From a virus: a stretch of DNA of 55,055 nt. This document shows positions 4,179 to 15,390 of the stretch, one piece after another. The notes under the pieces were generated by a model. The model was not told where the DNA came from and did not search any database. It saw only the letters and a program-made list of their open reading frames with translations. Made by a program: the position numbers and the translations under genes. The first letter of the stretch is position 1, and the number at the start of each line of letters is the position of its first letter. The DNA lies in UHGV virus genome UHGV-0209657. One strand, given 5' to 3'.

Positions 4179-4469
4179 TTAATGGTAGCGGACTTTATCC
4201 AGGGGTTTTTCCCCTAAATGGCGTGGTTGCGTTGCGTGGTAGTAGCTGCCGCTTTCATTTTCCGTATACCATTTTACTGATCCTTTGCGACGTTCTTTAA
4301 TGCTATTTGGTTTGCATCTTTCCTCGTTTGCAAATCGAATAGCTTTATCCACATTGTCTGTTTTATTGATTGCAGGTGATGATTTTCTTTCGTTTTCTCT
4401 TTTTATTTTTCTGCGTTCCCTGGCATTCAGTTTACTGTCACATTTGCCATACATGATTGTAACGCTCAT
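4179..4469 (-). CDS. basic protein with N-terminal arginine-rich motif, possible N-like antiterminator
   Basis: First gene after candidate leftward promoter; NARERRKIKRENERK resembles an ARM; GGAG RBS before ATG. Confidence 0.3.
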   Translation of the reverse strand: MSVTIMYGKCDSKLNARERRKIKRENERKSSPAINKTDNVDKAIRFANEERCKPNSIKERRKGSVKWYTENESGSYYHATQPRHLGEKPLDKVRYH

Positions 4470-4969: not shown

Positions 4970-5617
4970 TTATGGCAGGTTTACGATCTTCGCATCAACC
5001 ACCACGCCTATAATTTTTGATTCTGGATTCATAGGGATTGGCGGATACAGCGGATTGAGCGAACGTAAAAGCCTTTGACCTCCATCAATAATCAACTGTT
5101 TAAACGTCGGTATCTGCCCTTCCTCAAGCTGGGCTATAACCAGTTTGCCGTCAATAGCTGGCGCGTGCGGGTCAACAAGTATCATCGTCCCCGCCGGGAT
5201 GCTCAACCCCTGCGGCGCGTTCATTGATTCACCTTTGGCAACCAGCCAGTAACTATCATCTGAACAAATAACGCTAGTCGTAACGTGTGGTAATGCTGAT
5301 CGCCTTGTGTCATCCATATTGTTTACTGTGTCCTTCCAGTCAATAACCGGGTAACTACCTAAATCACGCGGCGGTGCGGCCTGAAGTGTATTAGAAACAG
5401 AATCATCAATGACCATACCATCATGTGTAACAGTGAACTGCCGACGACCAAGCGCCCGCATAATCCGCGCAATATCTTCAAGATTTGGCTCGCGGCGACC
5501 GTTCAGCCAGTGTGACAGGCCGCCTTTAGTTATCCCCATGAGATCTGCGAGTGAATCCTGACTCATGCCCTGCGCCCGCATGAGCTGCTTTGCTAAGTCA
5601 TACCATTTTGTTTTCAT
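4970..5617 (-). CDS. cI: CI-like repressor (HTH plus S24 LexA-type autopeptidase domain)
   Basis: N-terminal HTH, C-terminal GESM Ser motif and downstream Lys; divergent from rightward operon. Confidence 0.85.
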   Translation of the reverse strand: MKTKWYDLAKQLMRAQGMSQDSLADLMGITKGGLSHWLNGRREPNLEDIARIMRALGRRQFTVTHDGMVIDDSVSNTLQAAPPRDLGSYPVIDWKDTVNNMDDTRRSALPHVTTSVICSDDSYWLVAKGESMNAPQGLSIPAGTMILVDPHAPAIDGKLVIAQLEEGQIPTFKQLIIDGGQRLLRSLNPLYPPIPMNPESKIIGVVVDAKIVNLP

Positions 5618-5741: not shown

Positions 5742-5922
5742 GAAAAAGATAACTGAAGGCACAAAAAGGCACTTACCTTATGCTCTTTAAAAATCCGGTG
5801 TCGCTGCGAAGCGAAAAACAAATATCACGCAACGGCGGGATCTGTTGAGCGGTCAGTCACTGCTATCTAATGCTAATGGGATGCCCGCCCGCGCGTTCAC
5901 TCTAACCATAGGAGAAAATGCG

Positions 5923-6180
5923 ATGAGTATGAACATGATTAGTAAAGCATGGAACGTAAAACTTAATAGCCCGATTCAAAAACTTGTCTTAATGGCTCTG
6001 GCTGAAAAGGCAGATAACAAAGGACGGGTACATGATGCATCACGCAAAGAAGTAGCCGCAATGTGTGAACTTCCTGTTCATACGGTACATGATGCCTTCG
6101 CCGCGTTAATGGATAAAGGATTTGTTTGTCGTCTTGATGCATTCAGTGATGTCTATGTAGTGATGTTGCCGGAGGGATGA
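5923..6180 (+). CDS. small HTH DNA-binding protein (Cro/CII position)
   Basis: ATG at 5923 with GGAG RBS (listed start 5845 is non-ATG); helix-turn-helix-like segment; first gene of rightward operon. Confidence 0.5.
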   Translation: MSMNMISKAWNVKLNSPIQKLVLMALAEKADNKGRVHDASRKEVAAMCELPVHTVHDAFAALMDKGFVCRLDAFSDVYVVMLPEG

Positions 6181-6183
6181 TCT

Positions 6184-7230
6184 ATGAAGTGGTTTAAGCA
6201 TGACAGCGATGCGAACCGCGATGAAAAACTTCAAAACGTTTTGTTAGATTATGGCCTGGAAGGGTACGGGCTTTATTGGTATTGCCTCGAACTAATAACT
6301 TATGACGTAGATCAGCACAATCTGAATTTTGACCTACGACATGACGCGAGAATCATTGCGCGAAACGTCGGATCTACTGAAAAACGTATAGAAGAAATGA
6401 TGAAATACTTCATCGAAATTGGTTTGTTCGAATGTTCTCAAGGCCACATAACTTGCCTAAAGTTATTAAAAAGGCTGGACCAATCAATGACTTCTAAGAG
6501 CGCTTATAGGGCTGCTATAAACACAGCGAAGGAGCAATTAAAATTAGAGAAGTTAATCAATCCAACACCAAAAGGTCATGATAGGGTCATGACCGGGTCA
6601 GGAAAGGGTCATGAATTAGAAGTAGAAGAAGAAAGAGAAAAAGATATATACACTTCGTGTATTAGCGAAAATGGACAAAAAACGGTCAATCAGGATGGCG
6701 TAAACGAAGCGGCATTGCGTTGCTTGGCCTTCTACAACGACAAAGCTGGATGCAAGTGTCGTGATGCTAAGCCATTTATCGAACTACTGACAGAAACAAA
6801 AACACGTAAGGCATACACGGAGGATGAGATCACATTAGTAATCGAATGGGCTTTGACGCAATGGCGCAGCCGTGGTGGAACACCTAAGCCTATCAACATT
6901 TGCCGGGTAACTAAATTCGATGGGTATCTGGCTGACGCTGAGCAATGGCGCAAGCTATCAGCTACTGTAAACGCTGCCGACGTGGTGGAAGCATTTAACA
7001 GCACGTTTGACGGCCTGTTACCACCTGCCGAACTGGATCGGGATCTTGAACGCAAGATCTATGCGTTCACTGACTACCTGAAAGACAAAAGCATTAACGG
7101 CTTTGTCGCCTACTTCGAAACGTTCAAAAACACGGCTTCAGATTTTTACTTCGGCAATGGCTTCACTGCGACACTTGATTTCCTGCTTAAACCAAAAACG
7201 CTACGTGATACGCGCGCTGGCGCTCTTTGA
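6184..7230 (+). CDS. replication initiation / replisome organiser protein
   Basis: N-terminus MKWFKHDSDANRDEKL...GLEGYGLYWYCLE matches recalled DUF4373 replication N-domain; GGAGGG RBS; upstream of helicase. Confidence 0.7.
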   Translation: MKWFKHDSDANRDEKLQNVLLDYGLEGYGLYWYCLELITYDVDQHNLNFDLRHDARIIARNVGSTEKRIEEMMKYFIEIGLFECSQGHITCLKLLKRLDQSMTSKSAYRAAINTAKEQLKLEKLINPTPKGHDRVMTGSGKGHELEVEEEREKDIYTSCISENGQKTVNQDGVNEAALRCLAFYNDKAGCKCRDAKPFIELLTETKTRKAYTEDEITLVIEWALTQWRSRGGTPKPINICRVTKFDGYLADAEQWRKLSATVNAADVVEAFNSTFDGLLPPAELDRDLERKIYAFTDYLKDKSINGFVAYFETFKNTASDFYFGNGFTATLDFLLKPKTLRDTRAGAL

Positions 7231-7465: not shown

Positions 7466-7618
7466 CCTACCTACCAGTCTGTAAACCGAAAATTAGCCAC
7501 CTGATAGCGTCTCTGGCGCAATAAGACACTGCAACCTGTGCAAACGGGTTACGCGGTGGGATTTTTGCGTTGTAGCGCGTCTGAGGCGTTATATAGAAAA
7601 TTAATAAAGGAGGTATAT

Positions 7619-8674
7619 GTGATTGCTACTTATCATATGAAACTCAATTGTAAGGACACGCAATTACTGTCTGTTAATAATCTGGTTTCTGAACTTGAAA
7701 TTGATAGACTTAAATCATTTGTTAAATACTCTGATCTTTACGGATTTGAGGAATACAAGGATTTTATTGTTGATGGTGATGATGTGTATATCACACCCAT
7801 AACGTTTATTAGATTCGTTACACCTGGTAAATATAGACATTATGAATATAATGAAAAATGGGTTAAGCCAGTTATTGAATCTTGTGGATTAGTTGACTTG
7901 CAAGATATCTTTAATAAATATTCAAATAACACCAAAAAAGATAGTCCTTATGCTTATAATTATATTTTATGGTGTAACAATTATGTTGAAACGAGTGATA
8001 CTCCTGGGCGATGTTCTGTGTATGTGTCAAAAGAAGATGCTGAAAAGTACAAAAAATGGTTGTTCGTCACTCGCGGAGTATCAATAGAAAAGCTATGGGT
8101 AAGGTTGTTCCATTCAAGCGATATTGCAGATCCAGATGCGTTTTTAACTGAACACCTCAATAATGATGAGTTTACCATTGATTTAAATATTGAATATTTT
8201 ATAGTTAAAACAAATTATGGGTATGAAAGATATATTAGCGATAAGATAGCAGAAAAGTATCATGCATGGGGTGAAAATAAAGGTCTTAATAATAATTTTG
8301 AATGCGGGAATTATAACGACATAGAAAACTTTATTGAATTAAAAAGCGATAAAAATGTAATTGAAGAAATAAAAAAGGAGTACGACTCGAAATTATCAGA
8401 AATGAGAGATAATTGTAAAAATATGATTAGGAAGCGTTATGAACATGCTGGCTTAACTATGTATGAAAAACTAAAAGGAGTTAAATTAATAAGGCAATAT
8501 CCTGTTGATGTTGCTGGCAATAAGTATTTTATTGATGGCTACGATCCTGTGAATAACGTTGCTGTAGAAATTGATGAGTCACATCACAAACGGCAAGTAA
8601 AAAGCGATGCGATAAGACAAAAACGCATTGAAGATTATTTGGGGTGCAAGTTTTTCCGTTGTGCTATATCCTAA
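7619..8674 (+). CDS. AT-rich hypothetical protein with C-terminal DUF559/Vsr-like endonuclease-fold domain
   Basis: GTG start 5 nt after AAGGAGG; markedly lower GC than flanks; C-terminus YFIDGYD..VAVEIDESHH..D..R..LGCKFFR matches recalled DUF559 pattern. Confidence 0.5.
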   Translation: MIATYHMKLNCKDTQLLSVNNLVSELEIDRLKSFVKYSDLYGFEEYKDFIVDGDDVYITPITFIRFVTPGKYRHYEYNEKWVKPVIESCGLVDLQDIFNKYSNNTKKDSPYAYNYILWCNNYVETSDTPGRCSVYVSKEDAEKYKKWLFVTRGVSIEKLWVRLFHSSDIADPDAFLTEHLNNDEFTIDLNIEYFIVKTNYGYERYISDKIAEKYHAWGENKGLNNNFECGNYNDIENFIELKSDKNVIEEIKKEYDSKLSEMRDNCKNMIRKRYEHAGLTMYEKLKGVKLIRQYPVDVAGNKYFIDGYDPVNNVAVEIDESHHKRQVKSDAIRQKRIEDYLGCKFFRCAIS

Positions 8675-11404: not shown

Positions 11405-11483
11405 TTAACTTGAGCAAACGGCTTACCGGAAAGTTGACCGCTTTCTGGTGGCTGTTTTCGCGCTTAAAACGAGGCGAAAAACA

Positions 11484-12041
11484 ATGAGCATTGAACTTGA
11501 AGCAAAAATTATCAATATCCTTGAACTTGATGGCATCGCAACAATGCACCAGCTACGCCAGAAAACCGGATTATCAGCGGAATACGACGAAGCCGGATGC
11601 TTGCCGGAAACAGTTAAACACCTGATCGACACTAATCTGGTTGAGCGGGTGTATACATATTTTGGCCCGCGCCGCCGCTTGCTGGGCTATCGAATTAAAT
11701 ATTTATACGAACAACGACGCGAGCGTGTAGCCGCGTTATTTACTGACTACAACGTTAGAAAGCGAATGAGAGATATTAGCGCGGAAACTGGTATTCCGTG
11801 GAATTACCTTTCGCGCACGCTGCGTTTAATGGTGCTGGATGAAACGCTTTGCATAGATACCAATAAACACGGCCTTAATTTTTACTCACTGTTTAAACCT
11901 GGTCGCTTTGGTCACGCTAATGATCTCGCGTTTGATTTTGACAGCCGCCTGAATGAATACCGGAAAAATAACGGACTGTTACCGGATAAACCAGTATTTG
12001 AGATCGAAAAACTTAACGGTGAAACGGGGTTAGAATTATGA
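11484..12041 (+). CDS. hypothetical protein with N-terminal winged-helix-like segment
   Basis: ATG at 11484 (listed 11448 is GTG); function unknown. Confidence 0.35.
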   Translation: MSIELEAKIINILELDGIATMHQLRQKTGLSAEYDEAGCLPETVKHLIDTNLVERVYTYFGPRRRLLGYRIKYLYEQRRERVAALFTDYNVRKRMRDISAETGIPWNYLSRTLRLMVLDETLCIDTNKHGLNFYSLFKPGRFGHANDLAFDFDSRLNEYRKNNGLLPDKPVFEIEKLNGETGLEL

Positions 12042-12451: not shown

Positions 12452-12879
12452 GGCAAATTAGATTTGAAATAGTAAACGACGCCGTAAAAGAAAACGCTAT
12501 CAGGCAGATAAGAGAGATCCAGCCTGATAGCAAAAGCCCGATGATAATTACCATCCAGGAGAAAACCCGCTCGCTAAGCCAAAATAGCTTTCTATGGGCG
12601 TTGCTAACCGACATTAGTGATCAGGTTAATTGGTACGGTAAGAAGCTGTCGCCGGAAGACTGGAAAGCGGTATTCACCGCCGGGCTTAAAAAATATGGCG
12701 TCGTGCCTAATCTGGATAAATCCGGCTTCGTTGTATTGGGAACATCTACAAGTCGAATGAGTAAATCAGAATTCAGTGAACTAATCGAATTAATTTACTC
12801 GTTCGGTGCTGAACATGATGTTCAATGGTCGGGTGATACGAAATTAAACGAGGAATTCATAAAACGCTGGGGGCAATAA
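12448..12879 (+). CDS. ninB: NinB-family recombination protein
   Basis: Size and sequence pattern recalled from lambda NinB/Orf family. Confidence 0.65.
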   Translation: MRQIRFEIVNDAVKENAIRQIREIQPDSKSPMIITIQEKTRSLSQNSFLWALLTDISDQVNWYGKKLSPEDWKAVFTAGLKKYGVVPNLDKSGFVVLGTSTSRMSKSEFSELIELIYSFGAEHDVQWSGDTKLNEEFIKRWGQ

Positions 12880-13055
12880 TGGTTGAGTATTTTAAAGCTA
12901 AACCGACCGGGATTTATTACAAGGTAGAAAATGGTAATGTGTTTTATCTTAATCGCGCGGCTAATGAGTGGCGAGAGTGTCAATGCTACTACCTGAGAGA
13001 TATTAGAAATCATCCACATTATTTTATTAAAGTTGACGATGTACCAGTGGCATAA
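12879..13055 (+). CDS. hypothetical protein (58 aa)
   Basis: ATG overlapping ninB stop, RBS GGGGG; below ORF-track cutoff. Confidence 0.25.
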   Translation: MVEYFKAKPTGIYYKVENGNVFYLNRAANEWRECQCYYLRDIRNHPHYFIKVDDVPVA

Positions 13056-13069
13056 TTGAGGATAAACAA

Positions 13070-13729
13070 ATGAGTAAATCAAAAGCAATCGGTGTGATTA
13101 GCCATCGCACTAACCCTGAGTGTTACCCATCGTTTGAGGTAACAACATGCCGCACAGAATATAATTTTGGAACATACTATTTATTGGGTGTTCGCGCTGA
13201 CACTGGCGGCACTTATTCTGTTATGGCTGCGGGCTGGAAATTTGATAAATACGCTAATTTATCTAATAAGGATGATGATGGCATGAATAAAGAAAGTGAA
13301 ATCATTGATGAATTAATCGAAGATGAACGCCATGACTGCGAAACACAACCAGAAAAAACGGAATGGGCCGCAGGTGATAAACCTCCTGTTAATGTATGGC
13401 TTGATTGTGTGGGTCTTACGAGCGGAACGGTTCTCGATGTCGTTAAATTTAAATATGTTGGTGATAAATGGGCTATATGTGAAAGCAAGGAAGATTGCGG
13501 TGGCGAGAGGCCGCTATCATGGAAAACATGCTCTTTCAAGCTGTATATAGATCCGCGCAACCAGGCGTTGGGGAGAATAGCTAAATCTCTGGCTATTGTC
13601 GTTATTGGTAAAGATGCGGCAAAAGAGATTGATTTTTATCATGAAAACGAATGGTCGCATGATTATCGCAACATGGCCTGCGAGATCATTGATGGCAATA
13701 TCCCGTTCACTGAATACAAGGGGGAATAA
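13070..13729 (+). CDS. hypothetical protein (219 aa), accessory position next to alpA/int
   Basis: Long ORF, Cys-containing, lower GC than replication genes; no motif recognised. Confidence 0.4.
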   Translation: MSKSKAIGVISHRTNPECYPSFEVTTCRTEYNFGTYYLLGVRADTGGTYSVMAAGWKFDKYANLSNKDDDGMNKESEIIDELIEDERHDCETQPEKTEWAAGDKPPVNVWLDCVGLTSGTVLDVVKFKYVGDKWAICESKEDCGGERPLSWKTCSFKLYIDPRNQALGRIAKSLAIVVIGKDAAKEIDFYHENEWSHDYRNMACEIIDGNIPFTEYKGE

Positions 13730-13959
13730 TGGATAAAACCGGGACAATTCTTCTTAGTCGCCCTGCCATCTGCCGGATGCTGGGAGGAATTAGCAGGGGA
13801 ACGTTTTATTTATGGCGTAAAAAGTGGGAACGGAACGGAACTCCGTTCCCGGCCCCTGTTGATGTACTTGGTACCGGGCGTGGCGTTATGTACCGCTATC
13901 AGGACGTAATGCAGTTCTTTGATCAGATTGGTTTAACGTCAGCCAAAGATAATACATAA
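13729..13959 (+). CDS. AlpA-family phage transcriptional regulator / excisionase-like
   Basis: Small HTH protein (RPAICRMLGGISRGTFYLWRKK); 3' end overlaps integrase. Confidence 0.65.
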   Translation: MDKTGTILLSRPAICRMLGGISRGTFYLWRKKWERNGTPFPAPVDVLGTGRGVMYRYQDVMQFFDQIGLTSAKDNT

Positions 13960-15113
13960 TCCGCAAACTTATTTAGTGCCTCCTTTTGTTCATCAAGATA
14001 ATCATATTTATCGTACACCGCCAGTATCCCCCTTAATGAATGGCCTAAGACCTTTTCTGCAATATGTACCGGAACACCTATAGCTGAAAGGTGTGTCCGG
14101 CACGTCCTGCGGAGGTCGTGACAGGACCATGATTTACCGCCCATCCTTTTACGCACGAATATTGCAGCTACTTTTATCACTGATGCGTTTACTGGCCTGT
14201 TGCCGCCGTTAATCACTGGCGGGAATACATAATCATACTCATGGGAGGTTAAAACCTCCCTGAGCATTTTTATCGACAAGTCAGATAATCCCCGCCTGAT
14301 TTCACTTCTTGTCTTCGCCACCGCCGCCGGAACGGTCCACACACCGTTGTCCAGGTCTAGGTGTTCCCTTCTCATTTTCTGCAATTCACCAACCCTGCAC
14401 CCGGTTAGCAATAATAGCTTTAAGGCTATTTTGTTCTGCGGATAGATCTGCGAACTGTCTACCGTGCGCCAGAAGTGGCCTATCTCCTCACATGAAAGGT
14501 AACGCTCCCCCACCGCATAATGCTCGCCAACGTCAGCTACACGGATATTGTTTATCGCCGTGTTAGTCATTAGCCCGCGCCTGATTGCGCTGTTAACGAT
14601 GATTTTCATTCGCTTCAATATCAAACCAGCCGTAACCGCGTGACCCGCCGCAGTGATCTCGCCAAATATATCCATCCACTGTTTTGTCGTTACGTCGTCA
14701 GCTATGTAGTCGCCGTACTTGTTGACAACATGGCGCATCAATGCGCTTTTGACTTCTTTATATGCCACCAGCTTAATGATGTTCGGCAGGGATAGATAGT
14801 CTTCCACTACGTCTGTTATCGATCTCTTGCCCTGTTCAAAGGCTATGGCCTGCTTTACGCACAGTGCCGGATTCTTCCCTTTCGCAAGCAACTCCCTGTA
14901 TTCAGCCACCGCATAGCGGGCGTCTTTCAGACTCATTTTCCCGTACTCGCCGATCTTCATTCGCACTGGCTTGCCGTTGAATCTGTAACGGTACTGGAAA
15001 GTAATTTTCCCTTTTGGACTTATCCTGGCTGACAGACCGTCACGATCAGCTATCTCGCTTGGGCCGTCATATGGCTTGTTGGCAATAGTCCTTAACCTGG
15101 TATCCGTAAGCAT
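13923..15113 (-). CDS. int: tyrosine integrase (P4-type)
   Basis: N-terminal arm-binding-like domain, C-terminal HDLRRT box and catalytic Tyr region; ATG with GGGGGTG RBS. Confidence 0.9.
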   Translation of the reverse strand: MLTDTRLRTIANKPYDGPSEIADRDGLSARISPKGKITFQYRYRFNGKPVRMKIGEYGKMSLKDARYAVAEYRELLAKGKNPALCVKQAIAFEQGKRSITDVVEDYLSLPNIIKLVAYKEVKSALMRHVVNKYGDYIADDVTTKQWMDIFGEITAAGHAVTAGLILKRMKIIVNSAIRRGLMTNTAINNIRVADVGEHYAVGERYLSCEEIGHFWRTVDSSQIYPQNKIALKLLLLTGCRVGELQKMRREHLDLDNGVWTVPAAVAKTRSEIRRGLSDLSIKMLREVLTSHEYDYVFPPVINGGNRPVNASVIKVAAIFVRKRMGGKSWSCHDLRRTCRTHLSAIGVPVHIAEKVLGHSLRGILAVYDKYDYLDEQKEALNKFADYVLSLADVKPI

Positions 15114-15126
15114 GTTGCACCCCCAA

Positions 15127-15390
15127 TTTTGGTCACGTTTTGGTACACAGTTTTTGTTGTACGGATATTAACAGTATTGTACGGAATTAGAAACGCGATG
15201 CTGGGTTTTGGTTACAACAGGATGATTTTTAAGTAATTTTAGTGGAGAGATTGAACGGAGTTAAACACCTTTAAACATAGTGCGCTGGTCCTGTCTGGAA
15301 TGATTAGTGTAACGAATAATCATTTATAAAACATAATGTTATGTTGTTTTTGATTTTAGTTTTTGATATTTGGTCACTATTTGGTACACA
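15127..15390. other. candidate attP / integrase arm-site region
   Basis: 22-bp imperfect direct repeats TTTGGTCAC..TTTGGTACACA at 15127-15149 and 15369-15390; TTGTACGGA repeated twice; next to int. Confidence 0.35.

Follow-up and report, generated by a model that had tools for sequence, protein, structure and literature searches.

A fixed early gene of mEp021-like coliphages encodes a protein predicted to carry diverged, recombining barrels around a conserved acidic linker

The window, a 55,055-nucleotide stretch of the virus genome UHGV-0209657, belongs to an mEp021-like (mEpimmI) temperate coliphage. The region described here matches the temperate E. coli siphophages mEp021, mEp010, mEp013, mEp044, mEp515, mEp554, and MagusPhagus. 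Phages resembling mEp021 were approximately as common as lambdoids in one collection of temperate coliphages from human faeces (PMC11893012), and roughly one in two of their genes lacks an assigned function. The gene under study encodes 219 amino acids and stands second to last in the early operon, which diverges from the CI-like repressor gene. The operon, its neighbors, and the integration region contain the following features.

4179-4469, minus strand: N-like antiterminator gene.
4970-5617, minus strand: CI-like repressor gene.
5845-7230, plus strand: O-like initiator gene, the first gene diverging from the repressor.
12879-13055, plus strand: g58, the upstream neighbor (58 aa), always present and without a family match.
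13058-13062, plus strand: Shine-Dalgarno-like GAGGA, 7 nt before the ATG of the 219-aa gene, read from the sequence.
13070-13729, plus strand: coding sequence of the 219-aa protein, ATG start, orthologue of mEp021 gp03.
13727-13731, plus strand: TAATG stop/start overlap between the 219-aa gene and the HTH gene, read from the sequence.
13729-13959, plus strand: HTH gene (76 aa), Xis/AlpA-like, orthologue of mEp021 gp02.
13923-15113, minus strand: tyrosine integrase gene, int (Pfam Phage_integrase, 1e-20; Arm-DNA-bind_3, 2.4e-20).
15128-15390, unstranded: attP region, bounded by 22-nt direct repeats at 15128-15149 and 15369-15390.

Downstream of the O-like initiator, the plus strand encodes a 378-aa ORF, rep372, DnaB, a wHTH protein, two small ORFs, NinB, g58, the 219-aa protein, and the HTH protein, in that order. 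The Erf and SSB genes lie on the minus strand with the repressor and the N-like gene, and further minus-strand genes (methyltransferases, NinG, RusA, a Q-like protein, and late genes) run across the window ends. A preliminary description of this DNA had placed a 219-aa reading frame directly before alpA/int, and the placement holds. The TGAGGAT sequence is kept 5' of the N-type-A alleles of the gene in related loci. At its other end, the TAA stop codon (13727-13729) shares one nucleotide with the ATG of the HTH gene. The two genes overlap by 1, 4, or 8 nt in 34 of the 35 unique related loci that reach far enough, and the overlap is kept whatever C-terminal allele or HTH type (72, 76, or 77 aa) is present, indicating translational coupling of the 219-aa gene to the HTH gene. 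A consensus scan of the plus strand from approximately 8.2 kb to 13.9 kb detected no promoter-like site. Position and junctions together place the gene within the early operon. In the published map of mEp021, the operon holding its counterpart is fed by nutL and the Gp17 antiterminator (PMC11893012), and the repressor and N-like gene of the window are placed as in that map.

Several other features of the operon deserve description. A terminator-like hairpin with a 12-bp stem (11423-11451, plus strand) lies between dnaB and g197, the wHTH gene, and may divide immediate-early genes from antitermination-dependent genes, with the 219-aa gene among the latter. The g197 product (197 aa, 11448-12041, plus strand) matches a MarR-like PHROG at 2e-7 and gives a weak Ren-like match. 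Its relatives fall into two very different alleles, about 35% versus 81-100% identical, making it another swapped gene of the operon. The g58 gene is also allelic, with copies that are either ~100% or about 50% identical to that of the window. The 378-aa ORF (7538-8674, plus strand) has the lowest GC content in the window (about 31-33%) and no PHROG match, while its C-terminus resembles a DUF559/Vsr-like PD-(D/E)XK nuclease (Pfam, 2.1e-4; PADLOC 'mREase_II', 1.5e-8, residues 315-376). Elsewhere, the same slot is occupied by a zinc-ribbon and an HNH gene (mEp021), by HNH_3 and ANT genes (locus L003), or by a DUF4379/T5orf172 gene (locus L002).

Downstream of the 219-aa gene lies a compact integration region. 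The HTH gene matches Pfam HTH_23 (2.2e-6), PHROG 4745 'DNA binding protein' (3e-11), and, weakly, excisionase models, and we infer that it encodes an excisionase. The int gene converges with the early operon and overlaps the HTH gene by 37 nt. On the minus strand, 3' of int and within the HTH gene, is a terminator-like hairpin (13850-13826) with an 11 bp stem followed by a T-run. Antiterminated early transcription running into the convergent int gene could lower Int in lytic growth. The two copies of the 22-nt repeat, TTTGGTCACGTTTTGGTACACA and TTTGGTCACTATTTGGTACACA, flank the end of homology to the E. coli M15 prophage. Homology to this integrated prophage, which adjoins dgcM/ydaM, stops at ~15299. 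The repeats probably serve as arm-type sites for Int on either side of the attP core.

Cargo genes are frequent in the vicinity of int/att, and the preliminary description had viewed the 219-aa gene as an accessory gene at such a site. A moron or cargo gene in this position would be expressed from the prophage and would benefit the lysogen through defence, superinfection exclusion, or fitness. The gene has no assigned function, its GC content is below that of the replication genes, and it is highly variable among related phages, as are many defence and exclusion genes. Its location nevertheless argues against cargo. The gene belongs to an early operon under repressor control and lies on the side of int that faces the phage interior, ~1.6 kb from attP, with the HTH gene and int between; the consensus scan revealed no promoter-like site belonging to it, and it overlaps the next gene. 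The variable cargo slot of the early operon is instead the one at 7.5-8.7 kb. The low GC content that had been reported is real (42.0%, versus 50.8% in rep372 and 52.0% in dnaB) but not special, since all six distal operon genes, from g197 to the 219-aa gene, lie at 36.7-44.4%, including the five directly upstream of it; the HTH gene and int have 48%. A base composition distinct from that of the flanking phage genes, which would mark cargo, is not observed. PADLOC returns no match, and experiments have ascribed superinfection exclusion in the mEp021 group to Lpp lipoproteins (PMC11893012).

The distribution of the gene bears most directly on this question. Loci were picked independently of the 219-aa gene, through the rep372 protein encoded 3 kb upstream. 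Of 53 rep372 loci in IMG/VR, 41 have a rep372 that is at least 88% identical and are counted as members of the lineage. The slot of the gene is reached by 39 of them, and all 39 have the gene between g58 and the HTH gene. The order NinB, 58-aa ORF, 219-aa gene, Xis/AlpA-like HTH gene, and convergent int is the same in independent contigs. An orthologue with 46-77% amino acid identity is present in all seven sequenced phage records, and tblastn aligns the whole query (100%) to mEp021 at 61.5% identity. Among 5,426 complete E. coli genomes, 35 carry the gene, each as one chromosomal copy, and 35 carry rep372; the two accession lists are identical. A large protein database holds 375 relatives. 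A profile search of 1.84 billion representatives returned 9 clusters at 50% identity, which comprise only the family and its fragments (five are fragments), and no relative was found in 185,579 species-representative genomes. Because the gene is present in every lineage member examined, in a fixed slot, and absent elsewhere, it is best read as a lineage-defining core gene, exclusive to the mEpimmI lineage. Never missing within the lineage, never found outside it, and coupled to its neighbor, the gene is very unlikely to be cargo, and the accessory assignment is not upheld.

The remaining 12 IMG/VR loci (L082-L091, L094, and L098; 32-53 kb) have only a rep372-type protein in common with the window, at 56-66% identity. 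Since all remaining operon genes are missing from them, rep372 is a module exchanged between phage groups, and these loci represent a different group. In some RefSeq records, rep372 is labelled 'metallophosphoesterase family protein'.

The identical 219-aa protein is already public as UniProt A0A376LPW7, an uncharacterised E. coli protein, and its mEp021 counterpart, gp03 (AXN54122.1, locus tag mEp021_03), is annotated 'hypothetical protein', as are all named family members, which come from E. coli. The accessible text and supplementary files of the mEpimmI paper (PMC11893012) contain no statement on gp03. Ipe, the haemolysis protein and the one small mEp021 protein to have been characterised, was considered and is a different gene, of 72-83 aa.

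The absence of a recognisable motif, noted in the preliminary description, was borne out by searches of Pfam, PHROGs, NCBIfam, PADLOC, and the PDB. The only Pfam hit to the protein is a sub-threshold DUF5348 match (E = 0.065), which covers 21 residues, occurs in two of the 24 alignment members, and was treated as chance. Pfam searches with all 24 alignment members gave nothing usable. PHROGs and NCBIfam contain no match, the defence models of PADLOC-DB v2 give none at E up to 1, and in a profile search against sequences of the PDB no match scored better than E = 0.36. In the profile search of the 1.84 billion representatives, no distant relatives were recovered beyond the family and its fragments. 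At the sensitivity used, the family appears to consist so far of unnamed hypothetical proteins unrelated to characterised families.

These searches bear on a second explanation, in which the protein helps the replisome or NinB/Erf/SSB recombination and its acidic helix, described below, serves as a docking peptide of the SSB-tail type. The gene ends the replication/recombination cluster, two genes past NinB, and is universally kept with it, and small beta-barrels of the OB, Tudor, KOW, and WYL types often bind nucleic acids. None of the Pfam, PHROG, NCBIfam, PDB profile, or representative profile searches, however, revealed homology to a replication or recombination family, which would have spoken for such a role. 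Moreover, set against rep372, dnaB, and ninB from the same genomes, the protein is 5-9 times as diverse in amino acids (piN), one phage that seems intact has lost half of it, and the allele shuffling set out below is atypical of replisome parts. A replication or recombination helper is therefore a rather improbable identity for the protein.

The 219-aa product is a soluble, acidic protein (pI 4.9). An AlphaFold2 (AF2) model built on a 24-sequence alignment predicts four modules.

13070-13261, plus strand: module 1 (residues 1-64), a predicted small beta-barrel, basic in the allele of the window (pI 8.6).
13262-13360, plus strand: module 2 (residues 65-97), an acidic linker with predicted disorder and a net charge of -9 over 33 residues.
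13271-13339, plus strand: core of module 2 (residues 68-90), DDDGMNKESEIIDELIEDERHDC, nearly invariant and amphipathic.
13361-13549, plus strand: module 3 (residues 98-160), a second predicted five-strand small beta-barrel and the most variable part of the protein.
13550-13726, plus strand: module 4 (residues 161-219), a conserved C-terminal domain predicted to be helical.

The model has a mean pLDDT of 75, with domains at 70-87 and residues 65-92 below 50. In module 1, also at 70-87, strands are predicted at residues 8-12, 22-24, 28-32, 35-42, 48-52, and 56-60, and in module 3, five strands span residues 110-158. A linker helix is predicted at residues 74-89, within the low-confidence segment. 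Module 4 contains predicted helices at residues 162-179, 181-184, and 197-207 and the invariant motif D198-x-R200-x-M202-A203. A second model, of an mEp021-type allele that is 59% identical overall and very different in its middle domain, presents the same order of elements, with its domains likewise at 70-87 and residues 65-92 again below 50. Both models have a pTM of 0.41-0.45, so the geometry between domains is not reliable. The fold is accordingly read as two small beta-barrels and a helical domain, and nothing more specific. Of the checks proposed in the preliminary description, structure prediction thus yields a modeled layout, while remote homology adds no relatives beyond the family.

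A comparison of 35 unique coding sequences reveals differences among these modules. Module 1 has at least three allelic classes and module 3 at least four to five that are deeply diverged, while module 4 has two to four alleles that differ mainly in the tail; the C-terminal allele of the window forms a separate cluster at an 80% threshold among the loci compared. Nucleotide diversity is distributed as follows.

N-barrel (residues 1-64): piS 0.503, piN 0.261, piN/piS 0.52.
Linker core (residues 68-90): piS 0.425, piN 0.026, piN/piS 0.06.
Middle barrel (residues 110-160): piS 0.667, piN 0.386, piN/piS 0.58.
C-terminal domain (residues 161-219): piS 0.477, piN 0.120, piN/piS 0.25.

Over the whole gene, piN is 0.21 and piS 0.51 (piN/piS 0.42), whereas rep372, dnaB, and ninB have a piN of 0.02-0.04 at a piS of 0.36-0.40 in the same genomes. 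The gene has the greatest amino acid divergence among the always-present genes of the operon, which would fit a decaying or non-functional reading frame that persists by position only. This explanation is effectively refuted by the selection data. The dN/dS ratio is well below 1 in all modules, falling to 0.06 in the linker, and among close pairs it is ~0.2-0.35 in both barrels; no value above 1 was found in the gene, close pairs included. The full-length gene is present in 37 of 38 unique related loci, the remaining one carrying an in-frame deletion variant of 127 aa, and only a few copies are truncated or frameshifted (five fragment clusters). Both AF2 models, furthermore, predict confident domains. 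Purifying selection and full length in 37 of the 38 unique loci show that this is a real gene under selection and not a chance ORF, and the barrels are under relaxed but real purifying selection.

The conserved linker could in principle be a DNA or RNA element. Its synonymous diversity is as high as elsewhere in the gene, and the window has no Rfam match; this reading was rejected. The constraint on the linker core thus acts on the peptide and not on the DNA.

The diverged alleles are also combined in many ways. The two main N-terminal classes and the two main middle classes are found in all four pairings, every middle class accompanies more than one HTH or integrase type, and all combinations of middle class and HTH type are seen. 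The alleles were not seen to co-vary with the type of integrase, HTH gene, or g58. The E. coli M15 prophage provides the clearest example. Its backbone is 98-100% identical to the window, and just g58 (55%) and the 3' half of the 219-aa gene (52-74% identity from ~13400) differ. The difference that begins at this point in an otherwise nearly identical backbone places the breakpoint of a recent exchange inside the gene, at about 13400. In the same prophage, g58 has been replaced independently of the 219-aa gene. Taken together, the two barrels and, less markedly, the C-terminal tail occur as old, deeply diverged alleles, which homologous recombination reshuffles independently around a conserved linker.

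The 127-aa variant joins the N-barrel straight to the C-terminal domain, without the linker and the middle barrel. It occupies the same position in an apparently intact 53-kb contig and retains the overlap with the HTH gene, so that at least one phage can do without the 'invariant' helix. In this divergent relative (L100 4517-5637; Logan SRR32406413, 53 kb), a 246-aa ORF replaces g58 and precedes the variant. That ORF was considered as the 'missing' part of the protein and proved to be unrelated and antirepressor-like.

The coupling to the HTH gene and the free assortment of alleles meet in the main rival explanation, in which the protein is a partner of the integration/excision module and works with the co-translated Xis/AlpA-like HTH protein. 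It could modulate the activity, stability, or DNA binding of the excisionase, or directionality with respect to the convergent int gene, and its acidic helix could occupy the DNA-binding surface of the HTH protein. The gene adjoins the HTH gene and overlaps it, in 34 of 35 unique loci, for every HTH type; its position equals that of the genes just upstream of xis in the N-dependent early operon of lambda; and the int mRNA would end within the HTH gene, making this junction a regulatory hub. Against it, the barrel and C-terminal alleles assort freely with three HTH types and with integrase types, and the M15 prophage has the same HTH and int genes as the window with a different 3' half of the 219-aa gene. 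The protein also has no similarity to recombination directionality factors or to lambda Ea22 or Ea8.5. Weakened by the missing co-variation, a role in excision is unlikely, although it is the explanation that competes most seriously.

The reading that we favor, tentatively and at somewhat less than even confidence, is that the protein is a lytic-phase adaptor or host-interaction protein, possibly acting in counter-defence; the counter-defence detail taken alone is considerably less probable than the statement as a whole. Such a role is inferred purely from the architecture of the protein and its evolutionary pattern. The protein would be made only upon derepression of the prophage or upon infection, that is, in lytic or early development. 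Its acidic helix, which probably folds on binding, and its conserved C-terminal domain would attach to an invariant partner or form an assembly with it; the idea of folding on binding comes from the acidic, amphipathic helix being predicted as disordered, which is typical of such segments. The interchangeable barrels would recognise partners varying from one host or rival phage to the next. The protein would thus serve host takeover or counter-defence rather than lysogenic conversion. Several observations temper this proposal. As dN/dS above 1 is not found, the diversity may reflect relaxed constraint and old alleles rather than an arms race, and the universal presence of the gene speaks against an anti-defence role, given that anti-defence genes are usually patchy. 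The 127-aa variant, which lacks the helix, and the unreliable geometry between the modeled domains also count against it, and the missing promoter is a result of a consensus scan.

A bolder version of the adaptor proposal, to which we assign little probability, views gp03 as a so far unrecognised type of modular hub for counter-defence or host takeover, in which an invariant acidic docking helix and a helical scaffold carry two exchangeable Tudor-like 'reader' barrels. Recombination would re-equip the barrels one cassette at a time, fitting them to polymorphic immunity in the host or to the targets of rival phages, an intracellular analogue of the module swapping of tail fibres.

Whichever role applies, the gene moves from random cargo to a fixed, selected, and lineage-defining early gene. 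Its signature is unusual, combining a 23-residue acidic helix that is invariant at the protein level with flanking beta-barrels that recombine like cassettes. It also presents a small and defined experimental target in mEp021, a phage that is already cultured, non-lambdoid, and equipped with N-like antitermination. Should its function prove routine, the value of these findings lies mainly in correct annotation, as a core gene and not a moron. The shuffling of cassettes around the acidic helix is an experimental handle and no evidence for a new type of system.

A comparison with known systems begins with the closest relatives. The orthologues in mEp010, mEp013, mEp044, mEp515, mEp554, MagusPhagus, and mEp021 occupy the same slot, align over their full length at 46-77%, and share the same four-module layout. 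The window carries a different combination of alleles from the mEp021-group orthologues, all of which are annotated 'hypothetical protein' (PMC11893012). At the level of predicted structure, the best matches to the two five-strand barrels are small beta-barrels of the Tudor, SAWADEE, KOW, and WYL types. Examples of these folds are the tandem Tudor of 53BP1, the C-terminal Tudor of UvrD/PcrA, and the WYL domains of PafBC, BrxR, and CapW. Any Tudor/SH3-like likeness of the models would denote a structural class and not a homologous family.

The exo-xis genes of lambda (Ea22, Ea8.5, and orf60a/61/63) offer an analogy of position. Like the 219-aa gene, these small or medium-sized genes are distal in an N-antiterminated early operon and lie directly 5' of xis. 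Their content differs from one lambdoid phage to another, and they probably affect the choice between lysis and lysogeny. The analogy does not extend to sequence, as hhalign gives probabilities of 0.2% for Ea22 and 0.1% for Ea8.5, with no sequence or profile similarity to either; with values below 1%, homology to these two proteins was ruled out. Two further differences separate the systems. The int gene of lambda lies downstream of xis in the same orientation, while that of the window is convergent, and the exo-xis genes are patchy among lambdoids, whereas the 219-aa gene is universal in the mEpimmI lineage. The gene resembles a familiar class, that of lineage-specific, mosaic, delayed-early phage proteins encoded upstream of xis.
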